Of a stretch of 32,640 nt of DNA, positions 1,554 through 24,600 are shown piece by piece. The stretch spans positions 1-32,640 of the forward strand of contig DATEKP010000081.1 of assembly GCA_035277405.1 (NCBI GenBank), given 5' to 3'. The DNA is from Stellaceae bacterium (GTDB taxonomy: Bacteria > Pseudomonadota > Alphaproteobacteria > ATCC43930 > CGMCC-115725). Position numbers and translations under genes: made by a program. The stretch's first letter is position 1. Every line of letters starts with the position of its first letter. A model generated the notes under the pieces. That model saw only the letters and a list, made by a program, of their open reading frames with translations, ran no database searches and was not told the DNA's origin.

Positions 1554-1568
1554 GCCGCGACCCGCAAG

Positions 1569-2617: not shown

Positions 2618-2627
2618 GGTTCCCCGG

Positions 2628-4001: not shown

Positions 4002-4026
4002 CCGCGCCGGGGATGCGCGCGGGCGG

Positions 4027-4776: not shown

Positions 4777-5019
4777 AAAGGCGATCTCCGCAGCGAGGCC
4801 ACGGCGATTATACGGTTGGTCCGCCCGATACCGCCCTTCACGATTGCGCCAGCCGACGCGACCGCACGGCGATCGGCGATGCAGGACTTCCGAGGCAGGA
4901 TCCAACTCCGCGGCCCTCGGTAGTCGTCGCACCCTCACCCTCAACCCGGGCTGAGCGCGACGCGAAAACCCGCTCTTTCATAGACCGATCCGCGTTGCCA
5001 GAATGCCCGCCAGCCCAGC

Positions 5020-7074: not shown

Positions 7075-7157
7075 CGACCGAGAATGAGCCGAGAGATCCG
7101 GAGCTCTTGTCCTGCCGGAAGCGGCGTCACCGACCCGGCTGTTGCGCATCGCACAAT

Positions 7158-7979: not shown

Positions 7980-7980
7980 T

Positions 7981-8802: not shown

Positions 8803-8924
8803 CGATCACATTCCGCCCCAGGGACCCCGTCCCACCCACCTCACCGCCTGGAAAGCGGCACATCTCGGGCCCGTTCGCTGCGCCTTTGCCCGGACGACAA
8901 GAGGCAGTAGCGGCAGCGTGCAGC

Positions 8925-9875
8925 TCAAATGGCCGGCGGCGCCTGTATCGGACGCAGGATCCGCTCGTCGTAGCCGTATTTCGCAATGTAAGCGGTGCTC
9001 AATCCCAGGCATTCGGTAGAGGCGCAGCGGTCGCGGTATACGCATTGATAGAAGCCGTTGCGCATGAACTCGGGCCAGAAGGCCGGATCGACAAAAAGCT
9101 GCGGCTGCGCGTTCGAAAGAGCGGCCGCGTCCTCGCCCAACAGGCATTCCGGAAAGTTCTTGATCTCGACGCCGCGACCCAACCGCCGCGCCCGGGCGAC
9201 GGCCTCGCGCAGGTAAGGCAGGACAGCCGCGTGCGGAGCGATCAAATCCTTCTCGTCACTCTCGCTCATCGGCCAATACACCCAGAATTCCATCTGGACC
9301 AGATTGCGCAGGTGCCCGAGGCGTTCGACGATTTGCGGCAGCAGCGAGTAGTTGCGACTTGTTACGACCGAGTTGGTCAGCGTGGCGACGCCCTCGAACC
9401 GGTCGAGGATCTCAAGCCCGCGCAGCGTCTTGTCGAACGACCCGACGACGGTGGTGATCGCGTCGTGCGTCTGAGCGTCCGGACCCGCGACGCTGACAAA
9501 ATATTCATCGATGCCGGCCGCGACCAATACTTCGCTGAACCCGCGTTGCGCCAAGTGCATGCCGTGCGTTTGAATCCGCACATGCTCGAAGCAAGCGGCG
9601 CGCGCCTGTTTCGCCAGTTCGGCAAGGTCGCGGCGCAAGGTGATTTCCGATCCGGTCAGGATCAGGCCCTTCCATCGCCGGGTGCGTGCATTTTCGGCGA
9701 GGAGCGCGGCAAACCGCCCGTCCGATTCCGGCTGCAGCCGGTCCATCGTGCCTTCGATCATGCAATGGACGCAGCGCAGATTGCAGCGGAACTCCATGGT
9801 CATCGAGACATAGTCGCGATGATCGAAGTTGTGCAGCGCTGCCGGGCGCGGCGCTGCTTCAGCTCTGACGGACAT
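8925..9875 (-). CDS. Radical SAM enzyme with extra C-terminal cysteine cluster
   Basis: 316 aa. Canonical CxxxCxxC motif: FRCNLRCVHCM (C31, C35, C38; 9762..9785). A GSE-type SAM-binding stretch follows: LILTGSEITL. C-terminal cysteines C243, C278, C284 and C289 (QCVYRDRCASTEC, 9009..9044) may bind an auxiliary cluster. Confidence 0.9.
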   Translation of the reverse strand: MSVRAEAAPRPAALHNFDHRDYVSMTMEFRCNLRCVHCMIEGTMDRLQPESDGRFAALLAENARTRRWKGLILTGSEITLRRDLAELAKQARAACFEHVRIQTHGMHLAQRGFSEVLVAAGIDEYFVSVAGPDAQTHDAITTVVGSFDKTLRGLEILDRFEGVATLTNSVVTSRNYSLLPQIVERLGHLRNLVQMEFWVYWPMSESDEKDLIAPHAAVLPYLREAVARARRLGRGVEIKNFPECLLGEDAAALSNAQPQLFVDPAFWPEFMRNGFYQCVYRDRCASTECLGLSTAYIAKYGYDERILRPIQAPPAI

Positions 9876-9928
9876 GGTCGGGTACCGCCGTCGCCGGTGG
9901 GGCTTCCGCGTGGCGCGTTCGGTTCCGA

Positions 9929-10801
9929 TCAGAGGAGGCCATAAAAGGCGCTCTTCGTTACCCTTACCATGCCGGCTTCCACGACATAGTCGATCCCGAC
10001 ATCATACAGCAAATGGTCGAGATCATCGCGATGATCGCGCACAAACGCGACGAGATCGGAGGGAAACCGCTCCTGCTCCACAAACCCGATCAGCCCGGCC
10101 ACCGGAATGCGCGAGAAATAGACGCCGTCGCCGAACCTCTTGTTCGCAACAACGATGACGGCACAATCCAGCAGCTCGGGCCGCAGCACCGCATTGAGCG
10201 GATAACCGCCGAGATCGTGGTGAACCGAGCAACCGACCTTGGCGGCAACGTCGTCCATCTCGCGTCTCGCGTCGAAGAAGTAATATAGATTGGCAAGTCG
10301 CAAGCCAGACGCCGATTGCTCATAGCAGATGCCAGAGGAGACGCTGCTGCCGGGATTGCCTATATAAATGTTTATGGTATCGAGCGGACGCTCGCCGGCG
10401 ACGATCTCTTCGTCCAGATCGATCGAAAACATGAAATAGGGCCGCCCCTCCAGAGGCGGCAGGGCGCAGCGGACCAGCGGCGCCAGGATCGCGCGAACCC
10501 GCGTGATCGAGACCGCACGCTGCAGCCGCGCATAATCGTAAAAGTAGAATTCGAAGCGGAGCCGGCCGCCGAAATTCTTCACCCCGAAAACGGTCTGCCC
10601 GGGTCCTAACGCGTCGCGCAGCGCTCGGCACGCGGCGGCCAGACGCGGCATGCCGCCGGCGGCCTCCATCGACTGCCACAGCAAGTTGGCGCCGCGCAGC
10701 TTGCCGGCAGCGGGCGACAGGGGCCGGTAATCCCACAGGCAATAGTCGGCGTAGCGGTCGTGCGGCGCCGTCCGCTCGAGTGGCGGGGCAGCCCCAGTCA
10801 T
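9929..10801 (-). CDS. Hypothetical protein (290 aa), no recognised family
   Basis: An internal ATG at 10801 lies 10 nt after the upstream stop; the track start at 10963 would overlap the upstream gene. The product is MTGAAPPLERTAPHDRYADYCLWDY... It has repeated aromatic beta-strand-like motifs (RLRFEFYFYDY, YFMFSIDL, INIYIGN, LYYFFDA, VYFSRI) and ends SAFYGLL. Confidence 0.7.
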   Translation of the reverse strand: MTGAAPPLERTAPHDRYADYCLWDYRPLSPAAGKLRGANLLWQSMEAAGGMPRLAAACRALRDALGPGQTVFGVKNFGGRLRFEFYFYDYARLQRAVSITRVRAILAPLVRCALPPLEGRPYFMFSIDLDEEIVAGERPLDTINIYIGNPGSSVSSGICYEQSASGLRLANLYYFFDARREMDDVAAKVGCSVHHDLGGYPLNAVLRPELLDCAVIVVANKRFGDGVYFSRIPVAGLIGFVEQERFPSDLVAFVRDHRDDLDHLLYDVGIDYVVEAGMVRVTKSAFYGLL

Positions 10802-10811
10802 CGGGTTGGAC

Positions 10812-11609
10812 TCAATGAGCTTCGACTCCGTAGTAGAAGGTGACGAACTCCGCGCCGTCGCGCCCGATCCCGGCGGAGAGATGGCCGAGCGCGACGCTTC
10901 CGGCGCCGCCGAAGACCGGCGTTCCCTGCGACGGCGGCACCGCGAAATCGTCGAGCGCCGCATCGATCACATCACACACCTGGGCGAGGCACAGCCCGGC
11001 GTCATAGACGTTGAGATCACAGGATTGCCGCGGGTTTCCCGGCTCTTCAACCAGCATCATCAGCAGGCGCCCAGCCTCGGCCAAAGCGGCGACCCGGTCG
11101 AGCAGGCCGAGCGCGCAGCGCAGCGCCCGCGGCGCCTCCGCCGCCGGCAGAAGGACGCGCAGCCTCGCCTCGACAGCGTGACGAGTGCGGCAGTGAACCC
11201 AGCTGTATCGTGTCACGGAGCCCCCGCCGGGCCCTCTTACCGGCCACTTATACGCAAGGTGGACGAGCACGGAGCCGCCGTTCGCGGTCGCAATCGCGCG
11301 CCGCGCCGCGCCGGCATATTCGAAATAAATCTTCCGCAGCTCGAAACCCGGCCCGGCCTCGTGTCCGAAATGAACGAACTCGGCGTCATCGAATGCCCGC
11401 GGCAACTCATCCGCGAACTCGGCCGGGATTTCCAGCTCGCGGCCGATCCGGATCAGCCGGTCGAGCGGCGCCGGGCCCAGACCTGCCCGGTGGATGCTGA
11501 GCAGGCAGCGATCCGCCAGCACTGCGCCCGGCACGATCTTCACGGATTTTTCCATGCCGTAGGGTGCGCCCAGTTGCGCCACAAGCCTGACCAAATCCTC
11601 GGCCGGCAT
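10812..11609 (-). CDS. Hypothetical protein (265 aa), possible distant paralogue of the 9929..10801 product
   Basis: The ATG overlaps the halogenase stop (TGATG at 11611..11607). It contains FVHFGHEAGPGFELRKIYFEYAG, comparable to VFGVKNFGGRLRFEFYFYDYA in the neighbouring protein, and ends FVTFYYGVEAH. No known motif is recognised. Confidence 0.7.
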   Translation of the reverse strand: MPAEDLVRLVAQLGAPYGMEKSVKIVPGAVLADRCLLSIHRAGLGPAPLDRLIRIGRELEIPAEFADELPRAFDDAEFVHFGHEAGPGFELRKIYFEYAGAARRAIATANGGSVLVHLAYKWPVRGPGGGSVTRYSWVHCRTRHAVEARLRVLLPAAEAPRALRCALGLLDRVAALAEAGRLLMMLVEEPGNPRQSCDLNVYDAGLCLAQVCDVIDAALDDFAVPPSQGTPVFGGAGSVALGHLSAGIGRDGAEFVTFYYGVEAH

Positions 11610-13132
11610 CAGAGAGCCACCCGATGCAGTTGAGCGAGATGTGCCTTGTGGTCCGCCATCCGGGCGGCAACATCGCGATTTTCCGCCCTGATTCGGTCGA
11701 GCAGCTGCCAGACCTCGGCGGGGCGCGCGATCTCGGCCTCGACGATCAGCCGTCGCGGCAGCCGCTCGTTTCCGGCAAGAATGTAGAAATAGCTGGGCTC
11801 CGGAAACAGTTCCCGCACCGGGGTTTCAATGCGTCCGGTTTGGTCGTAGAGCGCCATCCTTTCGGCAAGGCTTTCGGGCAGGCTGACGCTGCGTGCATCG
11901 CGCCAAAACTCCTCGTCGCGCTGGGCCAGGACATAGTGCAATATGATGAAATCGCGCACCTGATCGTAGACTGCGCTCATCTGGTCGTTGTAGGCACGGC
12001 GCAGCGCCTCGTCAAAATCCCGATCCGGCCAATACTTGATCAGCAGTTCGACCGCTTTCTGGATCAGGTGAATGCCGGTCGATTCCAACGGTTCGACAAA
12101 ACCGGAAGAGAGCCCGACCGAGATGCAGTTGCGCACCCAGAACTCGGCGCGCCGACCGATGCGTATTTTCAGAAGCCGCGGATCAGCAGAGCGCTCTTTC
12201 ATTCCGGATTGCCGGATCAGCGCGGCGACCGCGGCCTCGGCCGAGATGTGAGCGCTCGAAAATACGTACCCGGTGCCGGTCCGGCTGTTCAACGGTATGC
12301 GCCATGTCCAGCCCGCGGGCATCGCCGTGGCGAGCGTATAGGGCGGAAACCGGTCGCCGCGCGGCAACGGCAACGCAACCGCGCGGTCGCACAGCATCAA
12401 ATGCGACCAGTCGATCCATTTTGCGCCGAGAGCCTGCTCGATCAGTCGTCCGGTAAACCCGGTTGCATCGATAAACAGGTCCCCGCCGAGCGTGCGATCG
12501 CCGCCGATGTCCAAGCCGGTAATATTGCCACGCTCGTCGAGCGTCACCTCTTTGACTTCGCCGAACAGGTGCTGAACGCCCTCGCCGGTCGAGATCTCGC
12601 GCAAATAGGCGGCGAAGGCGCTCGCATCGAGGTGATATGCATAGCTGCCCGTCTGCTCGATGATCGAGGTGCCGCGAGCCGGCTTCGGCGATTTCTCCAA
12701 TTCGCAGAGCCGCGCCTGCAGCGAATATTCCGAATAGGCAAGGCGACTGGCCGCCTCGACCCGCCGCTTCCGCCAGTAATGGAACAGGTCAAGCCCATTG
12801 ATCTGGGCGCCGCATAGCCCGAAGGCGTGCCAGTACGTGAAGTCTTGCCGCAACCAGCCGTCGAACCGGATAGCCAGCTTGTAGGTGGCCGAGCATCGGC
12901 GCATGAACTCCTGTTCGTCCAGGTTCAGCGCACGCACGAACTGCACCAGGCTCGGGATTGTCGCCTCGCCGACCCCGATTGTGCCAAGCGTCGGGGATTC
13001 TACCAGCACCACCTGGCACCCCAGCCGTCGCATGAAGCGGTTGAGATAAACCGCGGTAATCCATCCCGCCGTGCCGCCGCCGACAATGACGACGCGGTGA
13101 AGCCGCTGCGGCTGATCTGCGGCAGGCAGCAT
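11609..13132 (-). CDS. Flavin-dependent tryptophan halogenase family protein
   Basis: 507 aa. Motifs: VIVGGGTAGW (GxGxxG, 13064..13081), GVGEATIP, the lysine context ATYKLAIRF (K85), GWTWRIP (WxWxIP, 12293..12310) and GFVEPLESTG. A strong AGGAG lies 6 nt upstream of the ATG and overlaps the stop of the preceding gene. Confidence 0.92.
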   Translation of the reverse strand: MLPAADQPQRLHRVVIVGGGTAGWITAVYLNRFMRRLGCQVVLVESPTLGTIGVGEATIPSLVQFVRALNLDEQEFMRRCSATYKLAIRFDGWLRQDFTYWHAFGLCGAQINGLDLFHYWRKRRVEAASRLAYSEYSLQARLCELEKSPKPARGTSIIEQTGSYAYHLDASAFAAYLREISTGEGVQHLFGEVKEVTLDERGNITGLDIGGDRTLGGDLFIDATGFTGRLIEQALGAKWIDWSHLMLCDRAVALPLPRGDRFPPYTLATAMPAGWTWRIPLNSRTGTGYVFSSAHISAEAAVAALIRQSGMKERSADPRLLKIRIGRRAEFWVRNCISVGLSSGFVEPLESTGIHLIQKAVELLIKYWPDRDFDEALRRAYNDQMSAVYDQVRDFIILHYVLAQRDEEFWRDARSVSLPESLAERMALYDQTGRIETPVRELFPEPSYFYILAGNERLPRRLIVEAEIARPAEVWQLLDRIRAENRDVAARMADHKAHLAQLHRVAL

Positions 13133-13141
13133 GCGTTCTCC

Positions 13142-14209
13142 TCAAGCCGGCCGGTGCGCGGTTATCAGATGAAATTCCATGTCCAACTCGATTGCGCAAT
13201 GGTCGATGGCTTCGAAGCCGACCTCGGCGAGAGTCGTCAGATAAAGCTCCGCCGGCCTCAGGAAATGGACGAAGGCGAGCGCCGGGAAAAGCGCGTACGG
13301 CAGCCGCCGGCCGGCAAGATTGATCGGCGCGCGTTCGAAGATGACGAGCTTTCCGCCGGGCCGGACGGCGAGGTGCGCGCGCTCAATCAGCTGACGCGCG
13401 TCCGCGTCCGGCCAGTCATGCAGAACCGACTTGAACGACACCAGGTCGGCCGGAGACGGCAGCGGGCCGGTTCGCATATCGCCGGGGAAGAAGCCGATCC
13501 GCCCCGCCAGGCGTGGGCCGGCAGACCGTGCGATATGCTGCCGCCCAAGTTCGCAGACCACAGGCAGATCCAGTACGGTTGCCTGCAGCGAAGGGTTTCG
13601 CCGGCAGGCCTGAAGCGCGAACTCACCGGTGTTGCCGCCGAAATCGATCAGGCGCTCGACGTCGTCGATGCCGATCATATCGAGTGCCGGGGCAGCCTCA
13701 TACTTCGTCAGGCAGGTGGTAAATTGCGTCCAGGCGCGCGTCGCCTCCAGGTTTTCCGCGGTAATCTCGAAGCATCTGTCATAGCGGAACAGCTCGAATA
13801 CCTTCGAGCGCGCCATGAAACGCGGAAGGTCGGTCAGCAACGGCGTGAACAGCTCGTGGATATCGGGCCAAACCAGATCAGCGAAGGCAATCCTGCATTC
13901 CAACAGATCGCGGAAGCGAAGCCCCGCCTCGAATTCCGTGGTCAGCGCCACGACGTCGCCGGCACGTACAAGCACCGCATTCGACGCGAGCAAGTCTGAC
14001 AGAAGCCCGAGCCCCGCTGGACTGACGCGAAGCTCACGGCCCAAAACCGCCAGCGGGGTTGCCCCATTGCGCTGCAAAAAATCCACAAGGCCGAGTTCGA
14101 GGCCGCTCTTCAAAGCGCGCGCGTCGATTTCGCTGCCGAGGAAGGCGTTCACCTGCAGGAAGTCGAGATTGGCCGGCTGCACCAGCTGCCGCGCGCACCC
14201 CGGCAGCAT
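13142..14209 (-). CDS. O-methyltransferase family 2 (COMT-like, with N-terminal dimerisation/winged-helix region)
   Basis: 355 aa. SAM motif: LIDFGGNTGEFA. Also ATVLDLP, FFPGDM, and SVLHDWPD in the catalytic His region. The ATG overlaps the upstream stop by 1 nt (TAATG at 14211..14207). Confidence 0.88.
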   Translation of the reverse strand: MLPGCARQLVQPANLDFLQVNAFLGSEIDARALKSGLELGLVDFLQRNGATPLAVLGRELRVSPAGLGLLSDLLASNAVLVRAGDVVALTTEFEAGLRFRDLLECRIAFADLVWPDIHELFTPLLTDLPRFMARSKVFELFRYDRCFEITAENLEATRAWTQFTTCLTKYEAAPALDMIGIDDVERLIDFGGNTGEFALQACRRNPSLQATVLDLPVVCELGRQHIARSAGPRLAGRIGFFPGDMRTGPLPSPADLVSFKSVLHDWPDADARQLIERAHLAVRPGGKLVIFERAPINLAGRRLPYALFPALAFVHFLRPAELYLTTLAEVGFEAIDHCAIELDMEFHLITAHRPA

Positions 14210-15171
14210 TACGGAATCCGATCTTTCGGGCTCTCGGCGTCGTCGGCCGAACGCTCGGGCAGGTCGAAGGCGACCCGGCAGCGCAGGCCCGCCGGCACCT
14301 CATTGTCGGGGTTCGGCAGTTCGAGCCTGACGCCGAACGTGCCGCTCGCCGCATCGAAGACCTGGTCAACAACGGTCACCTTCGCCTTGCGGTCGCCACC
14401 GAACGGATCGTTCGGATGAACCGCCGCGATTTCGCCGATCTTGATGAATTTGTAATAGCGAACCGGCAGGTACGTCTCGACATTGAGCGGATTGATCTGT
14501 GCGATCGAGACGATCGTCGCTTCCTGATTGACGAATTCGCCCGGGCCGAGCGAGCGCTTCGTGACGACGCCGTCAATTGGGCTGCGGATTGTCCGCAGCG
14601 CCAGTTCGGCCTCAGACCGCGTCAGCTCGATCTGTGCCATGCGATGATTCAGCATTCCGAGCGCGAGTTCCTGTGTCGCCACATTGTATTCTGCCTTGGC
14701 GTTATCGACGTCCTGAACACTCGCCACGTGTTGCTGCTGCAACTCGAGCTTGCGCTTCAGGACAGCCTCCTTCTGGGTCAGCACCGCCTGCTTGGCCTGG
14801 ATTTCGGCGGTACTGTCGCCGCGCGCTTTGTTGGCGGCGACGACCGCCTGTTCGACGTCGGATTGCAGATGCGCGACGATCTGGCCCTTCTTGACGGTAT
14901 CACCGCGATCGACATTGACGCTGTCGAGTATGCTCGACACCGAGCTGCCGAGCTTCAGGCTGAGTGACGGCTCCGTCACGCAATCGAAGCTGGTCGCAGC
15001 GGCATTGGCGCCGCGCGCAAGGCCGGCGGCGCACACAAGCAGCAAGCCGCCGCGAAAGAGCACACGACCGCCGAGCATCGCGGCCTTACCAAAGACGTTC
15101 ATTCGCGATCCAACAAAAGGGATGGCAGAGCCGCCGCGGCGACCCGGCGGGGCTGGGCGGTGGCGTGTCAT
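14209..15171 (-). CDS. HlyD / RND-adaptor type periplasmic membrane fusion protein (MFP)
   Basis: It has an N-terminal anchor or signal (MNVFGKAAMLGGRVLFRGGLLLVCAAGLARG), a lipoyl-like motif (VDRGDTVKKGQIVAHL), a coiled-coil stretch, then RSPIDGVVTKRSLGPGEFV. Start 15171 forms an ATGA overlap with the SecA-like stop. ATG 15102 is an alternative start. Confidence 0.85.
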   Translation of the reverse strand: MTRHRPAPPGRRGGSAIPFVGSRMNVFGKAAMLGGRVLFRGGLLLVCAAGLARGANAAATSFDCVTEPSLSLKLGSSVSSILDSVNVDRGDTVKKGQIVAHLQSDVEQAVVAANKARGDSTAEIQAKQAVLTQKEAVLKRKLELQQQHVASVQDVDNAKAEYNVATQELALGMLNHRMAQIELTRSEAELALRTIRSPIDGVVTKRSLGPGEFVNQEATIVSIAQINPLNVETYLPVRYYKFIKIGEIAAVHPNDPFGGDRKAKVTVVDQVFDAASGTFGVRLELPNPDNEVPAGLRCRVAFDLPERSADDAESPKDRIP

Positions 15172-17177
15172 TCGGGCATTCCGGAAAAGGCCAGGGTCTT
15201 CGTTTGCCATTGATCGGAACGCAGCAGATCCGCCCGCATGCGGGCATGCAGCCGTTCCGCTCGCCGTTGCGCGTAATGCGAGGCTCCGCTGCCGACCCAG
15301 GCACCCAGCACGCGGGCCGCGACTTTTGCGATGCCAGAGAGGGCGATGCCGGTTTCGGTATCCATCAGCGGGTCCTCCAGCGACAGGATCGCCTCGAAAG
15401 ACCCCGGCTGTCCCTGGCGGCCTGCGCGCCCGGCGAGTTGCAGGTCAATCCGCCGCGCGTCATGGCGCTCGGTCATGATGACGTGCAGTCCGCCAAGCTC
15501 TTCGATCCCCTCGCCGAGATGGATGTCGGTGCCGCGGCCAGCCATGTTGGTTGCGACCGTGATGCGCCCCCGCTTGCCGGCCTCGGCGACGATCTCGGCC
15601 TCGCGCTTGTCCTGCGTCGCGTTGAGCACGGTGTGGGGCAGCCCGGCGGCATTCAGCGCCAAACTGGCGCGTTCGGAACTGGTGACCGAGCGTGTCCCGA
15701 TCAGGATCGGTACTCCGAGCTTATGCAGTACGGCGACGCGTGCCACGATGGCTCGCCACTTCTCCTCCTCGGTCGCGAGGACCACCTCGGGGCGGTGAAG
15801 CCGGCGCACAGGCTTCGCGGTCGGAATGGCAACGACCGGACGCCGGTAGACCCGCCAGAGTTCAGCGGCGACCGGCAGCAGCGTTCCACTCATTCCGGCG
15901 AGCCGTTGGTATCGCCGGAAGAAGCGCTGGTAAGTAATGCGCGCGATCGTGGTACGCCGAACGGACAGCTCGCAGTTTTCCTTGTGCTCGATCATCTGAT
16001 GCAGCCCGTCGCTCCACGAGCGGTCCGGCATGATGCGCCCGGTATATTCGTCGACGATGCACACCTTGCCGTCGGCAACCACGTAGTGCTCGCCGCGGTT
16101 GAAGAGATGAAGGGCCGCGAGGGCCTGGCGCGCGAGCTCCTCACGGCTCACGATACTGTGCCAATGGCCGCCGAGGCCTTCGGCGAAGGCGGTGATGCGA
16201 TCCTGCCCGGCGACGGTCAGGTGAACACGGCGCTCCTCGTTCGACGCGATGAAATCGGTGTTCGCGTCGAGCGAGCCGGCCAGCCGCAGCGCCGCGGCCA
16301 CGGTGTCGGCATCGAGCACATTGTCGGCCGCGCCGGAAATGATCAGCGGCGTTCTCGCCTCATCGACGAGCACGCTGTCGGCCTCGTCGACGAGGGCGAA
16401 GTGCAGACCCCGCAGGCGCAACTGCCGTGCCCGCGGCGTCGAGCTGTGCAGCGCCTCGACCTTCAGCGGCAGGTCGCCGGCCGCCTGGCCGAGGACCATG
16501 CGGTCCCGCAGATAGTCGAAGGCGAGCTCTTTGTTCGTGCAGTAGGTGATGTCGCAAGCATAGGCCGCCTGACGCTCGGCGGTGGTCTGGCCGCCGACGA
16601 CGATCCCGACGCTGAGGCCGAGGCTGGCGTAGAGCGGCCCCATCCATTCGGCATCGCGGCGCGCCAGGTAATCGTTGACGGTGACGACGTGGATCGGGAT
16701 GCCGGCCAACCCGGCCGTGCCGGCAACTAAGGTCGCGGTCAGCGTCTTGCCCTCGCCGGTCGCCATCTCGGCGAGCATGCCCCGCACCATGGCAAACGCA
16801 CCGACGAGCTGAACGTCGAAATGGCGCTGACCCAGGATTCGGCCCGACAGTTCACGAATCAACGCGAAGGCGCGGGCGGCCTCAGCATCGGGAAAGCCGT
16901 GCCGGCGCCGCAACGCGGCCGCAGTGTCGCGGATCGCCGCCGGAAACGCTTCGCCCGGCAACACCCGAAGCTCCGCCGCGTGGGCCTCGACGAGCGGCAG
17001 AATGCGCGTGAGGCGATGCATGCGCCAGCGCGCTGTCCGAGCTATCAGCTGCGCCTGGCCGGCGATCAGCGCGCCTTCCAGCGCGCTCTCCCGCCGTTCG
17101 GGCGCGTCGGCGTAGATGCGTTGGCGCGGCAATGCGACAGGATCGGCCGCGGTGCCCCAGGCAATGGCGCTAGACAC
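15168..17177 (-). CDS. Truncated SecA-like ATPase (NBD1, preprotein cross-linking domain and NBD2 only; no helical scaffold/wing or C-terminal tail)
   Basis: Motifs: HFDVQLVGAFAMVRGMLAEMATGEGKT (Walker A, 16743..16766), VVTVNDYLARRDAEWMGPLY, VDEADSVLVDEARTPLIISG (16332..16391), TNMAGRGTDI, and GGLHVIMTERHDARRIDLQLAGRAGRQGQPGS. Only about 60 aa follow the last motif. The start is uncertain: GTG 17177 overlaps the upstream stop by 8 nt, and TTG 17132 and ATG 17021 are alternatives. Confidence 0.85.
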   Translation of the reverse strand: MSSAIAWGTAADPVALPRQRIYADAPERRESALEGALIAGQAQLIARTARWRMHRLTRILPLVEAHAAELRVLPGEAFPAAIRDTAAALRRRHGFPDAEAARAFALIRELSGRILGQRHFDVQLVGAFAMVRGMLAEMATGEGKTLTATLVAGTAGLAGIPIHVVTVNDYLARRDAEWMGPLYASLGLSVGIVVGGQTTAERQAAYACDITYCTNKELAFDYLRDRMVLGQAAGDLPLKVEALHSSTPRARQLRLRGLHFALVDEADSVLVDEARTPLIISGAADNVLDADTVAAALRLAGSLDANTDFIASNEERRVHLTVAGQDRITAFAEGLGGHWHSIVSREELARQALAALHLFNRGEHYVVADGKVCIVDEYTGRIMPDRSWSDGLHQMIEHKENCELSVRRTTIARITYQRFFRRYQRLAGMSGTLLPVAAELWRVYRRPVVAIPTAKPVRRLHRPEVVLATEEEKWRAIVARVAVLHKLGVPILIGTRSVTSSERASLALNAAGLPHTVLNATQDKREAEIVAEAGKRGRITVATNMAGRGTDIHLGEGIEELGGLHVIMTERHDARRIDLQLAGRAGRQGQPGSFEAILSLEDPLMDTETGIALSGIAKVAARVLGAWVGSGASHYAQRRAERLHARMRADLLRSDQWQTKTLAFSGMPE

Positions 17178-19326
17178 GAAATTGCCCGAGGAAGAACTGC
17201 CGGATGGACCGCACGATGCGCCACGCGATCGGCTCGTCGGCGTGCTTGAAAAACACGTAAGCCCGCGAGCCCAGCATCGCGGAGCCGGTCGGTTCCAGCA
17301 ACTCGATGTCGAGCTGGAAAAATCGGAACAATGCCTGCGGATGCTGCATCTGCGACGGGTCCAGCGCGATCGAGCCGCCGCCACGCGTCGTCAGGGCGAG
17401 ACTCGGGACATCCTGCTGCGCCGCCGGCACCTCGCGCAGGATCTTGGCCGGGATCGGATGGTCGAGATCCTCGGCAAGATGGGCTTCGACGACGGTCGAG
17501 GGCTGCCGGATCAGGTCGACGTCGGTCTGCGGCGCCAACACCCGGACGACCGGATGACCATCACGCAGCACATAGCCGAGCAGCTCGCCTCGCTTGACGA
17601 AGCGCCCCAGCAGGCTGGCCGCCTCCTCGCCCGACGCCAGAATGAACCGCCCGCGCCGCGCGGCGTCGATGTCGAGGTCTTGCTCCTGCCTGCGGGCGGC
17701 GCTCAGCTGCTCCTTCAGGTGCTTCTGCTGGTCGAGGAACATCTCGGTCTGGACGCGATCGATCTGCCTGACCGCATCGAGGCGCTGCATTACTTCCTCA
17801 AGCTCGGCCTTGATCACGGTCACCTTGGCGTTGAGGATCGGGTCCGCCAGAACGAGCAGCGGTTCGTTCGCTTCGACTTCGCTCCCCGGCAGCGCCGCCA
17901 CCTTGGTCACGAACCCATCGGTCTTGGCGCGCAATTCGGCCTGATCGGGGACGATGACGACGCCCTCGGCGAAGGTCGAATAAGGGATGGGGATGCCGAA
18001 CAGCACCACGACGGCCGCCGCGACGGCGCCCCCGACGACCGCGAAGGCGCGCCGCCGGTGGCCCCGCAGCCGTTGGCTGGTGGCGAGAAATCTCAGCCCC
18101 TTGAACAGCGGCCAGATCGCGATCGCGATGACCGCCCACAGCGCCATGACGAGGCCTATGGCGAAAATCCGCGTCGCGAGGAACAGCGCAATCCCAAGCG
18201 ATACGGTCATCCGGTAGGCGAACGACAGAACCGCATAACCGAGCAGCCATTTCGCCTCGCTCGGCACGATCACCGGCGTCTCGACGTCGTCGACCCTGAA
18301 GAGATGCCGCTGTATCAGGTAGAAGATGTAAGCATTGGCGCGCGTCCCGAGATTGGGAACCTCGATCAGGTCGGAGAAGATGTAATACCCGTCGAAGCGC
18401 AAGAGCGGATTGCCGTTGAACAGCAGCGTCGAGACGCCGCCGATCAGCATGACGTTAAAGGCGAGCGTGCGGCCGAGGCCTGGGCTGCCCTGCACCCACA
18501 GGATCATCGCGATTGCAGCGAGCGTCATCTCCACCATGATGCCGGCCGCCCCGACGATGATCCGGCGTCGCTTCTGCCCGAACGCAGCGGACGCCGAGGC
18601 ATCGACGTAGAGGACCGGGATGAAGACGAGCAGCATGACGCCGACCTCATGCACCTCGCCGCCCCAGATTTTGGTCGCGTAGGCGTGGCCGAGCTCGTGC
18701 AGGCTTTTGACGAATGGATAGACGCAGATGATGACGGCGACGTTTTCGGCCGTCAGCACCCTGTCAGACACGTCCGAGGTCAGCTCCGGCGCGTGCAGCG
18801 CCGCCAGCACCAGGCCGACCAGCACGATTGCGAGCCACCCGACGAAGCCTGCCGCCGTGAATACCGGCCGCATAAACGGCATGGTCAGATCGAGCAGCCG
18901 GTTGGGATCGAACAGCGGGATGCGCACGGCCATCGGGTTGCGCAGCTGCTGCATCATGCGGCGCTGGCTCGCCTGGTCCGACCGCTTCACCATTTCGTCG
19001 AAATCGGGCGGGGTCTCGCCCCACAGCAAATCCGCGCTGTGCAGCTGGGCGAGAAGCTGGATCGTCTCGTCCTGTGTCGGCGGATCGTCGCTGGCCCGTC
19101 GCCCGGCGGCCTCCCAGATCGCACGCACGGTGCGACGGCCGTCCATCAAGCAGACCATCAGGTTGGCGATCGGCGACAGCGAGTGGAACCGCCCGGTCTG
19201 ACGGTCCTGCAGGATGTACCAGGCGCGGCGGCGAAACACCTGGCGGTGCAATGTCGTATGCGGCCGCAGCCGCGGCTTCAGATCGGCAACTCTGTACCAG
19301 GAGCTGCTGAACAGAGAGCGGCTCAC
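17170..19326 (-). CDS. Fusion protein: PqqD-like (RRE-like) N-terminal domain + site-2-protease/M50 membrane metalloprotease core + HlyD-like C-terminal domain
   Basis: 718 aa with a GTG start. Residues ~25-100 (AWYILQDRQTGRFHSLSPIANLMVCLMDGRRTVRAIWE...ETIQLLAQLHSADLL) resemble PqqD. HELGH is at 18685..18699 and NPLLRFDG (S2P NxxPxxxxDG motif) at 18388..18411, within about 6 or more hydrophobic segments. The C-terminal third (LRAKTDGFVTKVAALPGSEVEANEPLLVL, a coiled coil, then YVFF) resembles an MFP. Confidence 0.88.
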   Translation of the reverse strand: MSRSLFSSSWYRVADLKPRLRPHTTLHRQVFRRRAWYILQDRQTGRFHSLSPIANLMVCLMDGRRTVRAIWEAAGRRASDDPPTQDETIQLLAQLHSADLLWGETPPDFDEMVKRSDQASQRRMMQQLRNPMAVRIPLFDPNRLLDLTMPFMRPVFTAAGFVGWLAIVLVGLVLAALHAPELTSDVSDRVLTAENVAVIICVYPFVKSLHELGHAYATKIWGGEVHEVGVMLLVFIPVLYVDASASAAFGQKRRRIIVGAAGIMVEMTLAAIAMILWVQGSPGLGRTLAFNVMLIGGVSTLLFNGNPLLRFDGYYIFSDLIEVPNLGTRANAYIFYLIQRHLFRVDDVETPVIVPSEAKWLLGYAVLSFAYRMTVSLGIALFLATRIFAIGLVMALWAVIAIAIWPLFKGLRFLATSQRLRGHRRRAFAVVGGAVAAAVVVLFGIPIPYSTFAEGVVIVPDQAELRAKTDGFVTKVAALPGSEVEANEPLLVLADPILNAKVTVIKAELEEVMQRLDAVRQIDRVQTEMFLDQQKHLKEQLSAARRQEQDLDIDAARRGRFILASGEEAASLLGRFVKRGELLGYVLRDGHPVVRVLAPQTDVDLIRQPSTVVEAHLAEDLDHPIPAKILREVPAAQQDVPSLALTTRGGGSIALDPSQMQHPQALFRFFQLDIELLEPTGSAMLGSRAYVFFKHADEPIAWRIVRSIRQFFLGQFRV

Positions 19327-19333
19327 TGTGGCC

Positions 19334-21268
19334 TCACATCCAGCGCCAGAACCATAGCTGCAGCCAATCGATCACCGGATGTACCCAAATCCACGCGAGA
19401 TTGCGGCGGCCGACGCGGATTTTGCCGATACCCTCCATGCCGGGCCTGAGCTGCGGCGGGTTTTGCGTGAGCCGTCCTTCGACGCGAAACACATTGCGCC
19501 CGGCATGCGCCTCGGCGATCGGCGTGACCTTGTCGATCAGGAACGGCAATCCCGTGTTGGGCAACGCGGTGACGATCAGATCGCCGGTCTGGCCGGGCGC
19601 CACGGCGCGAACCTCGCGCTCGTCCACGTCGAGGATCACCCGATAGGCGGCAAGCGGCGCGATTTCGAACAGCACCTGGCCGCGCTGCACCGACGTGCCG
19701 ACCAGCTGGCTCAGGTCGCCCGACACCACCAGCCCCGCTATCGGCGAGCGCAGCTGAATGCGGGCGAGCTGCGCATCGATCAACTTGATGTGCGCGACCG
19801 CCTGATCGATCTGGGCGCGAATAACATTGATCGCCGCCGGCTCGCGCGCCGCCAGCGCCTTGTCGTATTCATACTGATGCTGCTGTCGTTCGGTCACCCA
19901 TTTGAGCCGCTCGAGCAGCAGGTCGCGGTCTTCCAGCGAGGCGACGAGTTCTCCTTCCGCGACCTTGTCGCCGGGGCGCACGTCGGCGTCCTTGATGAAC
20001 CCGTCATACGGCGCCACGATCGCGCGCCGCACGAGGCCTTCGATCTGGGCATCGGCATTGACGTTGTAGGTGCCCTGGGCCAGCGACAGGAACAGCGCCG
20101 CGGCGGCAATCGCGATGACCACGAGCTTGCGCACCAGGTGGCCGGGGCCGACCAGCCGCACAATTTGCCGACGCAAGCTCTCACCGGTCTTGACGATCAG
20201 CCAACGGTCGTTGCGGCGCTTTTCTTCAAGCACCGGGCCGACGATCGCGACCGCCAGCTCGAGCAATTCGACCGTGTCCTGCTCGAACGGCTCGTCGGCC
20301 GGACGCTCGAACGTCAGCGCGCCGACGAAGCTGTCGACGACCAGCATCGGGACGGTGAGGACCTGCCCATTGTGGTGCAGGCGCGACAATTCCGCATGCG
20401 CGGTGGTCGCGATCAGCTGGTCGGCCGGCGCCGGATAGAGAATGAGACAGCGCTGATCGAGCGCCTCGTCCATCGCCTTGGCGAGCCCGCTCACCAAAAC
20501 CATGCGCTCACCAAACTGCGCGGTATGGGAGATGACCTTGACGGCGACGGCGCTGCCGATGCGGATTCCGAGACTGACGCGGGTGCATTTGCAGCGGACC
20601 GCCAGCGCGGTGACAGCGGCCAGCGCCGCCGCTTCGAAACCATCGCGCGCGAGCGCATCCGCCAGGAGGTCGAGCGCCGCCCGCGAGCGCTCGATCAGCC
20701 GTTCCTGCTCGATGCCGCGAGCCTGCCGCAGCCGCTCGCGAATCCATGCGACACCCCATTGCAGCTGGCGCAGCGCGGACTTGATGTCGTCGGGCCGGGC
20801 GCCGTGCAACGTCACGCCCGCCACCCCCTTCAGCTCGCCGTCAAGCTGGATCGGCAGGGCGACATGAGCCGCCGCAGCCTCTCCGGTGCGTCCGGCGGCA
20901 TCGGTGTCGGCGACGCCCCGCCGCTCGCGCAAAGCCAGTTCGGCGGCCTCGATCAGCGGCGCCGAGCGGGTCGAGCCTTCCGGCCAGAATGCCACCGCCT
21001 GGAAACTGTTGGGGGCGGCGGCGGCGAGCAGAACGACGCCACGCGCCGCCCCCGCAATGATCTGACATTGCAATGCGAGCCAAGCGCCCGCCATTTCGAA
21101 CAGCGTTTGCGAGTCGCCGAGGCGGCGCCACAAGGCGGGCTCGAGCGACGCGACCGGCGCACCGACGTCATCCGCCTCATCGGCCGCCGACGGCGCGCCG
21201 GCCGGTTCGCTCGCCGCGGCCGCCATCGATCCGGCCCGCAAGGAAGATTGCTGGGGGGGCGGAGTCAT
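19334..21268 (-). CDS. GAF-GAF-TM-HlyD membrane fusion protein
   Basis: ATG 21268 lies 5 nt after the DUF3467 gene's stop; track start 21343 would overlap that gene. There are two GAF-like regions (…GVVLLAAAAPNSFQAVAFWPEG…ALPIQLDGELKGVAGVTL and …VSLGIRIGSAVAVKVISHTAQ…VPMLVVDSFVGALTFER). These are followed by a TM segment (LVVIAIAAAALFLSLA) and an MFP core (IVAPYDGFIKDADVRPGDKVAEGELVASL, a coiled coil, then LRSPIAGLVVS). Confidence 0.8.
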   Translation of the reverse strand: MTPPPQQSSLRAGSMAAAASEPAGAPSAADEADDVGAPVASLEPALWRRLGDSQTLFEMAGAWLALQCQIIAGAARGVVLLAAAAPNSFQAVAFWPEGSTRSAPLIEAAELALRERRGVADTDAAGRTGEAAAAHVALPIQLDGELKGVAGVTLHGARPDDIKSALRQLQWGVAWIRERLRQARGIEQERLIERSRAALDLLADALARDGFEAAALAAVTALAVRCKCTRVSLGIRIGSAVAVKVISHTAQFGERMVLVSGLAKAMDEALDQRCLILYPAPADQLIATTAHAELSRLHHNGQVLTVPMLVVDSFVGALTFERPADEPFEQDTVELLELAVAIVGPVLEEKRRNDRWLIVKTGESLRRQIVRLVGPGHLVRKLVVIAIAAAALFLSLAQGTYNVNADAQIEGLVRRAIVAPYDGFIKDADVRPGDKVAEGELVASLEDRDLLLERLKWVTERQQHQYEYDKALAAREPAAINVIRAQIDQAVAHIKLIDAQLARIQLRSPIAGLVVSGDLSQLVGTSVQRGQVLFEIAPLAAYRVILDVDEREVRAVAPGQTGDLIVTALPNTGLPFLIDKVTPIAEAHAGRNVFRVEGRLTQNPPQLRPGMEGIGKIRVGRRNLAWIWVHPVIDWLQLWFWRWM

Positions 21269-21273
21269 TCGGC

Positions 21274-21591
21274 CTATCGCTCGATGTCGAGCGCCCCGTG
21301 CCTCGCCTCGTATTCGCGCAGCACGCCGCCGAGCACGGTCCACAACCGCTTTGCCGCAAACGGCGTCAGGACGATCCGGTTGGTCAGATCGACCACGACT
21401 TGACCCGCATCAGCGACATTCCAGGTCCGGTTCATCCCGAAGAACAGATCGACCTGCTCTCGTGTGCTCTGCACGTTGACGACATTGGCGAAATGCGTCG
21501 CCATCTCGTTGTCGTTCCACTGCACCGACGGAGCCGCAGGGGCGTCGGCGGCGGGCGGTTGCGTCCCCGAACCGGCGGAGGTCTTTGCCAT
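21274..21591 (-). CDS. DUF3467-like small protein (105 aa)
   Basis: ATG 21591 is preceded by AGGA about 13 nt upstream. The N-terminus MAKTSAGSGTQPPAADAPAAPS is disordered. The core WNDNEMATHFANVVNVQSTREQVDLFFG...VVDLTNRIVLTPFAAKRLWTVL matches my recollection of the DUF3467 signature (Y/F-aN-v-v-hs-eEf-lDFG). Confidence 0.72.
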   Translation of the reverse strand: MAKTSAGSGTQPPAADAPAAPSVQWNDNEMATHFANVVNVQSTREQVDLFFGMNRTWNVADAGQVVVDLTNRIVLTPFAAKRLWTVLGGVLREYEARHGALDIER

Positions 21592-21683: not shown

Positions 21684-24600
21684 TCAGGTTTCGAACCACG
21701 CTCTGGCGGCGACGCGGCCGAAATCGCGCAGTGCGGTCAGCCACGACGACGACGGCACCACCATCGCTTCATCCGCCGAAGCATAGGCCGACTGCCCGGG
21801 CTGCGACGGATTCGCATCGGCCGCCGCGCGAGCGTCGGCGACGACGATCGTCAGCGGCTCGGGCTGCGGGGCCACAAAAGTCCCGGCCGCCTCGTCGAAG
21901 ACCCAGGTCTGGCGCTGCCCGCCGGACCCCGGCGCGGGCTGGTGGCGGGCGACCGCGAAACTGATCTCGCTGTCGCGAACCGCCCGGATGACATCGTCCG
22001 GCGAGGCGAACGCAAACTGGCGCGCTGCCTGCGACGCCTCGGCCTTGTCGCCGAACAGGATCTCAGTTCCGCCGTCGGCAGTGATCGGGGCGGCCCCGAT
22101 GTCGCCGGGCAGCACCAACCGAACCGCCTGATCGGCCGTGTCCGGCGTCAAGAACTGCGCCTCGCCCGCCGCCGCCAGCAGGCGCTGCATGGTCCCTGTG
22201 CCGAACGGACCAAACGGTGCATCCGCGTCCGGCGCAGTCTGCCCGATGGTGTCCGCTTGGCGCGGCGGCAAGCCGGCGAGGGCCGGCGGGGGCAGCGTGA
22301 TCGATGCCGCGCCGGGCACCGAGAGCTCGTCGAGCAGCGGGAAGACGGATTGCGGCGGCGGTTGAACCGACGATCGGTCTGCCGGTCGGTCAGCCACCGG
22401 CGCGGTCGCAACCGGCAACAGCAGCGGCGCGCTCTCGTCCTGCAAGGCCGGCGCCGGCGTGCTCATGGCCGGCACCGGCTGCAGGGTTGCCGGGGTATCC
22501 TCGCTTGCCAGCGGCGCCAGGACCGTCTGGACCGGCGGCGCCAGCCGTGTTCCGGTGCTGAGGTATTCCGACATCAGGCCGCTGGTCGTATCGGCGAAGC
22601 CGAGCACGTGCGCGAGCTCGTGCATCTCGACGGTCAGCAGATCCATTGCGCCGGCGGCAGCGCTGCCCGGCAGGGCGACAAGCCCGTCTGACGCAGTCAG
22701 CAGGAAGGCGTCGTCCGTCGTGGGGTTCGGGTCGATAAACCAGCCCCAGCCCGCCGCGTTGGGCGACAACGTGATCGTGTCGCCGACCGTGATGCCGAGC
22801 CCGTCGTCCGGCAACGCCGCGATGTCGATCGTCACCGCCCGCAATTCGGCGATCGTCGCGGCATCGAGCGAGTAGACCGCCGTCAGCCGGTCGATCGCGG
22901 CGCCGAGCTCGGCGTCGACCTCGCTCATGGTCAGCGACGTGACCCCGACGGCCGCCGCGGTTGGCGCCGAGGCCGCGTACATGTGCTGGATCGTCTCGGT
23001 CTTCAGGTTCGAATCGTCGGTGAAGACCGTGCTCTGCGTGAAGGTCGCTTTGCCGGTCAGCACCGCGAGGCCGAACTGCCCGCCGGTCAGCACCGAGTTG
23101 TAGGTGTAGCTGAGCAGCTGCAGCCCGTTGACCTTGAGGACGACGAAATTGCCGTTGGCGTTGATCTCGATCGCATAGCTCGTGCCGCTGGCGATCGTGA
23201 AGGACGCCTTGGCGTCGAATACGAAGCCGCTCTTGCTCGTGTAGTGGCCGAGCGCAACCTGGTTGGTGCCGCGCAGCAGCACCGCGAATTTGTAGTAGCC
23301 GGGATTGTCGTAAGCATAAACGAGGCCAGCCTCGCCGGTCGTCTGCAACGTCGCCTTGAGATCGAGCGTCGCGTTCGGCTGCAGGCTCAGCGTGCCGGCC
23401 GGCAGCCCGAACGCCGGGCCGATGTCGATCAGCTGGATGGCCGCACCGCCCGACGGCGCGCCCTTTGCGGTCGAGGCCGTTCCGGTATCGCTGCCGGGCG
23501 CCATCGTCCAGCTGCCCGAGCTCGGCGGCGCGTAATACTGCGCGGTGCCGCCGGTGTACGTCTCGGTATAGGTGAAGCTGGTCGGCGGCACCGGCTGCTG
23601 GATCACCAGGTTGCTGAAGCTCGACAGTGAGTTGTTGGCGCCGAGCCCGACGATGCCGTAGTTGACGCCGATATTGACGCCGTTCACGACGTTCCACGGA
23701 AACAGGAAGCTGACCGCCATGCTCGCGTTGTTGTTGACGATCAGGTAGGCGTAGTTGTTGTTCAGCGACAGGAACAAATTGTACCTCGTGCCGGCGACGA
23801 TTTGAGCCGGCGCCTGCGCGTCGATGACCCACGGCACCGCCTGCGTCGGATCGTAATGGCCGATCTCGACCTTGTTGATCGACTCGTCGATGCCGGCGAA
23901 CTTGAAATTGCTCGGGCTCTGGTAGTCGAAAATGATGTAGGCGTTCGACTTGTAGCCGGCGGTCGGCTTGCCGGTCGCCACCGACGCGGTCAGTTCGAAA
24001 TAGTTGGGCAATGTGTTATTCGGATCGAACACCGCGAAGGAATTGGTAAAGAGGGCGGGCGGGGTCGCGTTGAGCAGGCCGTTCTTGACCGTCCAGGTGC
24101 CGCTGACCGGCTCGACCGCTCCCAGCGTGTTGTTGGTGAAGCTGGCGGAGGCGATGACCGTGCGCGAGCCGCCCGGGATGTGGCCCTGCGCCACCGCCTG
24201 GTTCGGCGCGCCGCCCTGCATCTGCCAGAACGGATCGACCTGCGTCACGAGGCCGAGCTCGCCATAGGGCTCGCCGTTGCGCGCCGGGTCGGCGATGCTG
24301 ATGTCGTTGCTGACATTGTCGGCACCGTCGGCGGCCGACAGCTGGTAGAGGTAGGCGAACAGCGCCGGGTTGACGTCGCGGCTGACCGTCGGCAGGCCGT
24401 AGGGCGCAAACGGGATGACGTATTGGTTGAACTCGCCGCGCCAGGCGATCAGCCGGTCGTTGGCGCCGCCGGCGATCAGCGTGTTGCGCCCGGCGCCGGC
24501 GAAGATGACGCTGTGCATGTAGGCGTTGTTGTCGGTGACGTCGTTCAGCCCCGGCTGCGATCCACCTGTCAGGTTGCGCTGACCGTTCAGCAGATCGTCG

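Follow-up and report, generated by a model that had tools for sequence, protein, structure and literature searches.

A naturally truncated SecA-family ATPase paired with an M50 protease-adaptor fusion in a putative exporter module for giant proteins

We analysed a stretch of 32,640 nucleotides (the window) from a Stellaceae bacterium (contig DATEKP010000081.1, assembly GCA_035277405.1) and found that it encodes a shortened SecA-family ATPase, here called SecA'. Its domain content predicts that SecA' is a complete polypeptide motor of the clamp type that has lost the parts engaging SecY and SecB. In the reading that we favour and hold to be reasonably probable, SecA' would be the cytoplasmic ATPase of a dedicated envelope-spanning, type-1-like exporter for giant proteins carrying the LEPR-XLL motif, and not a second motor for SecYEG.

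SecA' retains the SecA motor domains

15168..17177, minus strand: SecA', truncated SecA-family ATPase of 669 amino acids; assigned by Pfam, NCBIfam, PDB alignments, AlphaFold2 (AF2), Foldseek, motifs and family conservation

SecA' consists of a family-specific N-terminal extension of approximately 45 amino acids, NBD1, the PPXD (approximately residues 293-397), NBD2, a scaffold helix (residues 627-665) and a LAFSGMPE end. An earlier note on this DNA had listed five SecA signature motifs in the correct order, and all of them were found in the product: MATGEGKT (residues 138-145), VTVNDYLARRDAEWMG (residues 165-180), LVDEADSVLVDEARTPLIISG (residues 262-282), TNMAGRGTDI (residues 543-552) and RIDLQLAGRAGRQGQPGS (residues 576-593). 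They include the DEAD-type motor motifs, namely Walker A, Walker B and the arginine finger (GEGKT at 141, DEAD at 264, TNMAGRGTDI at 543 and GRAGRQG at 583). Pfam recognized SecA_DEAD (2e-95) and P-loop_SecA (6e-52), and the PPXD was matched by SecA_PP_bind (1e-24) over residues 293-397, corresponding to model positions 6-110 of 110. When SecA' was compared with the NCBIfam SecA equivalogs, it scored below both cut-offs (PRK12904, 584 bits with a cut-off of 814; TIGR00963, 572 with a cut-off of 800), and the same was true for the SecA2 models TIGR03714 (472, cut-off 930), TIGR04221 (426, cut-off 725) and TIGR04397 (524, cut-off 1085). The SecA and SecA2 models were matched only up to position ~550-560 of their ~760-815 positions; for the SecA equivalogs, the match covers positions ~10-560 of ~800.

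The AF2 model of SecA' was confident (pLDDT 89.4, pTM 0.89), and a Foldseek search with it returned substrate-engaged, SecY-bound SecA as the best match (6itc, query TM-score 0.80; 5eul, 0.79). A closed clamp in SecA' would be compatible with these matches, a predicted conformation being weak evidence. In the family alignment, a YPER-type motif is common to the N termini of SecA' proteins and reads LPRQR in the window copy. We also observed a family-specific insertion of ~19 residues in NBD1 (residues 229-250; window 16428..16493, minus strand), where it separates the DYLRDR motif from the Walker B strand. It is predicted to be helical, has no counterpart in Bacillus subtilis SecA according to the HMMER alignment, and may serve as a partner-docking surface.

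The C-terminal truncation of SecA'

SecA' ends at residue 669, which is 76 residues past the last motif rather than the approximately 60 estimated previously. At its C terminus, the AF2 model shows a short helix (608-624) followed by a 39-residue helix (627-665). Residue 621 of SecA' pairs with residue 568 of Clostridioides difficile SecA2 in the HMMER alignment, and in that protein a 66-Å scaffold (HSD) helix spans K578-N625, followed by the wing domain (626-705) and the two-helix finger (706-781) (PMC7503281). Because of this pairing and these helix limits, we conclude that the first scaffold helix is retained and that helix 627-665 of SecA' corresponds to essentially the first long scaffold helix. 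The proposal that nothing remains beyond NBD2 thus holds for the wing domain, the two-helix finger and the C-terminal tail, which were missing in domain searches and in the AF2 model, but not for this helix.

Several lines of evidence indicate that SecA' lacks the wing domain, the two-helix finger (IRA1) and the C-terminal SecB/zinc tail. Pfam did not match SecA_SW in SecA', even when the last 75 residues were searched alone at E-values up to 10, and SecA_SW was likewise not matched in any other protein of the module; we therefore rejected a hidden scaffold/wing domain in SecA' or in a neighbouring module protein. Alignments to PDB SecA chains break off at chain residues 547-603 of 778-841. 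No Cys/His cluster of a SecB/zinc-binding tail was present in SecA', which ends in LAFSGMPE. Taken together, the domain searches, the AF2 model and the PDB matches agree with the earlier proposal that the SecYEG- and SecB-contacting parts are absent.

We then considered whether the open reading frame (ORF) could be what remains of an ordinary secA gene after decay or faulty assembly. Its short length, and nothing else, speaks for this explanation, which we hold to be hardly conceivable. The 120 closest protein clusters (60-81% identity) were nearly all 645-690 amino acids long, with 44 of exactly 668; SecA_SW was found in none of them, and conservation extended to the final residue. Nearly all of the 150 best matches (42-58% identity) among 1.84 billion representatives were also 645-690 amino acids long and aligned to their own C terminus. 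The same conserved tail (…LAFSGxxE) ends more than 150 SecA' clusters at 50% identity, with the family signature AQRRAExxHxxxRxxLLxxDxxxxxxLAFSGxxE, and an identical end point and terminal motif are shared by hundreds of sequences from several phyla. Moreover, the catalytic motifs are intact, the structure model is confident, and the DNA downstream of the SecA' stop is filled by the gene for a small periplasmic adaptor (MFP), which begins directly past it. The earlier note had named a frameshift or sequencing error hiding an HSD/HWD reading frame as the finding that would overturn its view. Sequence comparison excludes such a frameshift and indicates that the truncation is genuine, because the end point is conserved across the clusters and in 64 of 65 loci anchored independently of SecA' (see below).

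Two longer proteins were inspected as possible SecA' fusions. In P0261 (993 amino acids), an apparent SecA'-MFP fusion, the NBD2 match breaks off at model position 73 of 205, and the protein probably represents a frameshifted gene call. P0273 (1,240 amino acids) was rejected as it is a canonical SecA with SecA_SW.

The start codon of SecA'

The N terminus had been described as ambiguous among GTG 17177, TTG 17132 and ATG 17021. Comparison with related loci favoured GTG 17177, with which SecA' overlaps the upstream gene, up to its stop codon, by 8 nucleotides (nt): about 45 of 75 related loci, in lineages ranging from Alphaproteobacteria to Desulfobacterota, have an ATG or GTG, often ATG, at the equivalent position with the same overlap, and the proteins starting there are 655-680 amino acids long. 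ATG 17021 could be excluded because residues 16-52 are conserved in the family, while TTG 17132 is possible and is not favoured by the comparison. On this basis, we place the start of SecA' at GTG 17177.

SecA' is paired with an M50 protease-adaptor fusion

17170..19326, minus strand: PqqD-M50-MFP fusion (M50-MFP) of 718 amino acids; assigned by weak Pfam matches to PqqD, Peptidase_M50 and HlyD_3, NCBIfam daptide_HExxH, motifs, hydropathy and alignment

The upstream gene encodes a fusion of a PqqD-like domain, a polytopic M50 (site-2-protease-type) metalloprotease and, after residue ~450, a C-terminal HlyD-like adaptor, with hydrophobic segments located between residues 159 and 445. The protease motifs HELGH at 210 and NGNPLLRFDG at 304 (HExxH and NxxPxxxxDG) were invariant in an alignment of relatives. 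Pfam Peptidase_M50 scored 19.8 (gathering score 27.2), and the NCBIfam model daptide_HExxH (NF041824) aligned over its whole length (9e-43; score 147, cut-off 300).

As an independent test of linkage, 185,579 species genomes were scanned with the M50-MFP alignment only, and the 80 best loci were fetched. The scan returned at least 580 M50-MFP relatives. Among the 65 M50-MFP-anchored loci with enough downstream DNA, 64 contained a complete SecA' ending at the family profile end. Since the same truncated SecA follows M50-MFP in these loci, which were found via M50-MFP alone, and mostly with the 8-nt overlap, gene order argues that the motor serves a different membrane partner and adaptor, as had been suggested previously. 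These data point to a pairing of SecA' with M50-MFP that is obligate and translationally coupled.

The sole anchored locus with an incomplete SecA' ORF was L065 (11793..13265; 491 amino acids, profile positions 115-663), from an Oceanospirillaceae metagenome-assembled genome (MAG), where a frameshift or assembly error is probably responsible. In L003, L027, L028 and L064, a small MFP gene lies between M50-MFP and SecA'; the 8-nt overlap is absent in these loci because this gene intervenes, and they show that the gene order of the module is not fixed.

Other components of the module

19334..21268, minus strand: GAF-MFP of ~644 amino acids; Pfam HlyD_3, HlyD_D23 and GAF, hydropathy
21274..21591, minus strand: DUF3467 protein of 105 amino acids; Pfam DUF3467, 1e-15
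14209..15102, minus strand: small periplasmic adaptor (small MFP) of 297 amino acids from ATG 15102; Pfam HlyD_D23 and HlyD_3, NCBIfam RND_mfp

To count the module genes, tblastn was run across 90 loci. GAF-MFP is predicted to comprise a cytoplasmic N-terminal region with a GAF domain, a hydrophobic segment (378-396) and a periplasmic HlyD/MFP domain. We took ATG 21268 as its start because a longer ORF would overlap the DUF3467 gene, and a homologue was found in 85 of the 90 loci. The small MFP, which exceeded the cut-off of NCBIfam RND_mfp (129 bits; cut-off 94.9), had a homologue in 66. The window thus encodes three HlyD/MFP domains, in the small MFP, GAF-MFP and M50-MFP. A TolC/OEP gene lies directly after the module on plasmid pMSC49a of Methylosinus sp. 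C49 and in L006. No ABC transporter gene was present between or beside the module genes, either in the window or in the annotated plasmid operons.

The DUF3467 gene was detected in 44 of the 90 loci. In the alignment, the first ~22 residues of its product are variable and the remaining core of ~80 amino acids is nearly invariant. The AF2 model, with four strands and one helix, was of low confidence (pLDDT 53); Foldseek with this model gave no match below an E-value of 0.6, and sequence and profile searches of the PDB yielded no significant match. An hhalign comparison with an approximate Escherichia coli SecB sequence aligned only 11 columns, with a probability of 0.3%. A SecB-like chaperone is thus not supported by the AF2 model, itself of low confidence, or by Foldseek, the PDB searches and hhalign, and we regard the DUF3467 protein as a candidate adaptor or chaperone. 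A role of the module in anti-phage defence was also considered and rejected, as PADLOC returned no match for any of the five module proteins.

A giant protein is the likely cargo

21684..32640, minus strand: giant RTX-repeat protein of at least 3,615 amino acids, candidate cargo; seven Pfam HemolysinCabind matches, frame open at the window edge

Directly upstream of the module, and on the same strand, lies a gene for a giant protein that the earlier note did not mention and that we consider the likely cargo, judging by its position and by related loci. Residues 2617-3332 (~720 amino acids) share 30-38% identity with giants upstream of the module in nine other loci (L005, L016, L027, L028, L035, L041, L054, L065 and L086). 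Upstream DNA of 9 kb or more was available in 49 anchored loci, and in 29 of these it contains a same-strand ORF of at least 1,800 amino acids. Most of these ORFs run off the edge of the locus, and their ends lie 1.5-4.2 kb upstream of the M50-MFP gene, a distance that DUF3467 and GAF-MFP would fill. When the C-terminal 1,000 residues were compared, 25 of 38 such giants fell into one homology cluster.

Giants next to the module range from 3,600 to 10,600 codons. On pMSC49a, the order is a giant of 8,847 amino acids, DUF3467, MFP, a "PqqD family protein", SecA', MFP and TolC. A plasmid of Mesorhizobium ciceri R30 carries a 10,518-amino-acid giant followed by the module, and a plasmid of Pontibrevibacter nitratireducens a 10,603-amino-acid "LEPR-XLL domain-containing protein" followed by the module. 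The NCBIfam model LEPR-8K (LEPR-XLL, NF012209) matched all four complete giant N termini from related loci (23-34 bits; cut-off 17), and the pattern basic-FExLEPRxLLSAD was found at giant N termini in four further loci.

Several additional features of the giants were observed. Their C-terminal tails share two motifs, WVFDExxGxFV and, ~40 residues later, a Trp motif (SSWL, IDWS or AWG), after which the tails finish in a basic or amphipathic end, as judged by eye from the alignment. The tail motifs were placed in the window (21729..21905, minus strand; residues 3543-3601) and in L005, L016, L027, L028, L032, L035, L041, L064 and L065, and may represent a second sorting, anchoring or cleavage signal. 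An HExxH motif (MHELAHVLGF; window 22608..22622, minus strand; residues 3304-3308) stands at the end of the conserved ~720-residue region, a similar HELGH motif occurs in the giant of L077, and the region around the window motif had no Pfam match; it may belong to a self-processing metalloprotease domain. Residues 172-301 of the window giant match Pfam DUF3383 (1e-23). In L001, an IS66-family insertion (TnpB and transposase; 2545..4510) lies between a DUF4347 giant-protein gene and the DUF3467 gene, and in L005 a Y1 transposase gene separates the giant gene from the DUF3467 gene.

Distribution and annotation

The gene order DUF3467, GAF-MFP, M50-MFP, SecA' and MFP was also found in a 3.2-Mb metagenomic contig, a Mesorhizobium MAG, a Thermodesulfobacteriota MAG and others, and in a slightly permuted form in a Tectomicrobia MAG. 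Hosts of the anchored loci include Alpha-, Beta- and Gammaproteobacteria, Desulfobacterota, Nitrospira and Myxococcota, with Methylobacterium, Labrenzia, Bradyrhizobium sp. DOA9, Mesorhizobium, Neptuniibacter caesariensis MED92 and Kistimonas among the cultured ones. Members of the SecA' family lie on accessory replicons of cultured Methylosinus, Mesorhizobium, Rhizobium, Ensifer and Rhodobacterales, and on a Pontibrevibacter plasmid. Because it is plasmid-borne in cultured Methylosinus, Mesorhizobium and Pontibrevibacter, we consider the SecA' module to be accessory. SecA is essential, and a chromosomal secA is expected in the plasmid-carrying strains. All sequencing runs that contain the window sequence were soil or rhizosphere metagenomes. 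The Bradyrhizobium DOA9 module also appeared in two small runs labelled "GENOMIC RNA-Seq", which were of ambiguous nature.

RefSeq names SecA' relatives "prepilin peptidase" (Methylosinus sp. C49), "DEAD/DEAH box helicase", "preprotein translocase subunit SecA" or "hypothetical protein", and M50-MFP relatives "PqqD family protein" or "hypothetical protein". Three RefSeq-annotated SecA' members are located as follows.

L088, 13920..15836: SecA' member
L089, 14004..15965: SecA' member
L090, 11992..13977: SecA' member

NCBIfam (June 2026) contained no model capturing SecA' or M50-MFP. Full-text literature searches combining SecA, M50, HlyD, ribosomally synthesized and post-translationally modified peptides (RiPPs), giant proteins, DUF3467 and LEPR-XLL returned no description of the module; the last of these is mentioned only in passing (PMC10868602). 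SecA' is an undescribed SecA-family variant, and the system is an undescribed variant of MFP/TolC-dependent exporters.

Downstream and flanking genes

7158..14209, minus strand: seven co-directional genes for an O-methyltransferase, a Trp-halogenase family protein, two unknowns, a radical SAM protein, a WelO5-like halogenase and a methyltransferase; Pfam, NCBIfam

These seven genes continue the operon after the small MFP gene through start/stop overlaps. Two of the proteins (265 and 344 amino acids) had no family match. The O-methyltransferase, the two unknowns and the radical SAM gene recur beside the module in 11-15 of the 90 loci, including Desulfobacterota, the Trp halogenase in 8, and the WelO5-like gene and the methyltransferase in 2-3. 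The seven genes are an optional accessory set outside the core module; the substrate of their enzymes could be the cargo, DUF3467 or a small molecule. Window positions 1..7100 contain flanking genes unrelated to the module.

774..1553, plus strand: enoyl-CoA hydratase
1940..2617, plus strand: SLT-domain lytic transglycosylase
4027..4944, minus strand: F420/NADP oxidoreductase-like gene
5020..7074, plus strand: molybdopterin oxidoreductase

Proposed mechanism and alternatives

In the exporter that we propose, the PqqD-like, RRE-type domain of M50-MFP would recognize the basic FExLEPRxLLSAD leader of the giant. SecA' would then clamp the unfolded chain and feed it with ATP through an inner-membrane assembly formed by the transmembrane parts of M50-MFP and GAF-MFP, and the three MFP domains would link this assembly to a TolC-type outer-membrane duct. 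The leader would be removed by the M50 active site, and DUF3467 might act as a holdase or adaptor. The N-terminal extension of SecA', with its YPER-type motif, and the C-terminal LAFSGxxE may replace the lost SecY-docking elements and dock SecA' to its partner. We see an even chance that the five-gene module (DUF3467, GAF-MFP, PqqD-M50-MFP, truncated SecA and small MFP, with or without TolC) constitutes a new type of secretion system dedicated to LEPR-XLL giants of 8-10 thousand residues, in which the chain would be pushed N terminus first through an assembly built on a site-2-protease homologue into an MFP/TolC duct, without SecYEG or an ABC transporter. Work on E. coli SecA supports independence from SecYEG: truncations below N828 are inactive in translocation even when SecYEG is present, and IRA1 and the binding regions for SecY and SecB are located in C34 (PMC5456053).

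A number of points weigh against this proposal. The module lacks a polytopic transporter of known type, and we know of no M50 protease that acts as a protein-conducting channel. TolC-like genes were found in only 5 of the 90 loci, and there is no TolC gene within the window. The Pfam matches to PqqD and M50 in M50-MFP fall below their gathering scores, and the low-confidence DUF3467 model (pLDDT 53) leaves the fold of this protein unassigned. On the cargo side, a giant ORF was missing from the 10 kb upstream in 19 of the 49 loci, and the N terminus of the window giant, where a LEPR-XLL motif would be expected, lies beyond the window edge. The support as a whole consists of sequence and gene order.

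Of the other explanations, it is very unlikely, in our view, that SecA' is a SecA2-like ATPase that delivers the giant to the housekeeping SecYEG, with M50-MFP acting downstream in the periplasm or outer membrane. SecA and SecA2 are the closest relatives of SecA' in sequence and structure, the predicted conformation resembles SecY-bound SecA, and SecA2 proteins too show reduced wing domains and no C-terminal tail (PMC7503281). However, SecA' lacks the two-helix finger and the second half of the scaffold, which every known SecA2 retains (PMC7503281), and the inactivity of E. coli fragments below N828 with SecYEG (PMC5456053) also speaks against delivery to this channel. In addition, SecA' is translationally coupled to M50-MFP and not to a SecY-like gene, and the visible giant N termini carry LEPR-XLL rather than an obvious Sec signal peptide. 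We also considered it unlikely that the module exports a small RiPP and cleaves off its leader, with the radical SAM, halogenase and methyltransferase genes encoding the tailoring enzymes and SecA' replacing the ABC exporter. PqqD/RRE domains and M50 leader proteases occur together in daptide clusters, and in M50-MFP the PqqD-like match is accompanied by the full-length daptide_HExxH match at 9e-43. The seven tailoring-type genes extend the window operon, and the recurrence of the O-methyltransferase, the two unknowns and the radical SAM gene in 11-15 of 90 loci reaches outside the Alphaproteobacteria. Yet tailoring genes are missing from ~85% of loci, while giants adjoin the module in most, and we found no small precursor gene, the adjacent substrate candidate being the giant protein. 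DUF3467 itself, with an invariant core and variability confined to the N terminus, is unlike a precursor with a variable core, and a clamp-type polypeptide motor would suit long chains better than short peptides.

Alternatively, the module could be a processing or release machine in which SecA' is an unfoldase that feeds a membrane-associated substrate, the giant or its anchor, to the M50 protease. Such cleavage would serve maturation, shedding or signalling, and the GAF domain would be the sensor. FtsH-type ATPases feed substrate into a protease, and M50 enzymes are established as proteases, not channels. The intact M50 catalytic motifs, the GAF sensor domain on the neighbouring MFP and the conserved tail motifs of the giants, which could be cleavage or anchor sites, all fit such a machine, and we give it a small but appreciable chance. 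It does not fit the three MFP-type adaptors per module and the TolC genes of some operons, which are hallmarks of an outer-membrane conduit, and known site-2 protease systems cleave in the membrane without a cytoplasmic clamp motor.

SecA is among the best-studied molecular motors and, to our knowledge, is thought to work only with SecY-type channels. If the exporter reading holds, the SecA motor would have been recruited into another machine, where it would serve a different membrane partner, and the route by which LEPR-XLL proteins (8,000-10,600 residues), among the largest bacterial proteins, reach the cell surface would be explained; if its function were confirmed, the module would rank as a new type of secretion system. 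The module occurs in at least 580 species-level genomes, including rhizobia, methylotrophs and marine Rhodobacterales, is often plasmid-borne, and may have a part in adhesion, symbiosis or interactions between bacteria. With several carriers available in culture, the hypothesis is open to direct testing, and defining the SecA' family would correct many inconsistently named records.

Comparison with known systems

SecA' shares NBD1, PPXD, NBD2, all helicase-type motifs and the first scaffold helix with the housekeeping SecA of E. coli and B. subtilis. It is ~40% identical to B. subtilis SecA, and its predicted fold superimposes on SecY-bound SecA. In contrast to housekeeping SecA, SecA' stops approximately at the end of the first scaffold helix, without wing, two-helix finger/IRA1 or SecB/zinc tail, and has ~40 extra N-terminal residues, the ~19-residue NBD1 insertion and the C-terminal LAFSGxxE. 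Housekeeping SecA is encoded by a solitary gene, whereas SecA' is encoded in a module with M50-MFP. The SecA2 proteins of Mycobacterium, C. difficile, Listeria and the streptococcal aSec system resemble SecA' as substrate-dedicated second SecA paralogues with reduced C-terminal regions; SecA2 lacks the C-terminal tail, and its wing domain is shortened in mycobacteria (PMC7503281). However, SecA2 keeps the scaffold and the two-helix finger and works via SecYEG or SecY2, while SecA' lacks these elements and, unlike SecA2, is found in diderm bacteria with MFP/TolC partners. In domain content, SecA' is nearly the same as E. coli SecA N68 (residues 1-609), which comprises motor and PPXD and whose structure 5k9t was among the Foldseek matches. 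N68 and longer C-terminal truncations show high, deregulated ATPase activity and no SecYEG translocation (PMC5456053). N68 is artificial, whereas SecA' is natural and conserved and has an extra scaffold helix, terminal motifs of its own and a dedicated membrane partner.

With type 1 secretion systems (ABC transporter, MFP and TolC), the module shares MFP adaptors, TolC in some operons and the proximity of giant repeat/RTX protein genes, and both are presumably one-step exporters across both membranes. The module differs in that it lacks an ABC transporter and would draw its energy from a SecA-type motor, that M50-MFP, a metalloprotease-adaptor fusion, is its sole polytopic membrane protein, and that it contains three different MFPs. 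Moreover, its proposed cargo carries an N-terminal LEPR-XLL motif, whereas type 1 substrates carry a C-terminal signal. RiPP leader machinery, including PqqD/RRE proteins, the daptide M50 protease (NF041824) and peptidase-containing ABC exporters, shares a PqqD-like domain and an HExxH protease with the module, and the proposed logic would be the same: a leader is recognized and cleaved, and the product is exported. In contrast to this machinery, M50-MFP is fused to an MFP, is coupled to SecA' and scores 147 against the cut-off of 300, tailoring enzymes are usually absent, and the module's putative "precursor" is a protein of 3,600-10,600 amino acids.

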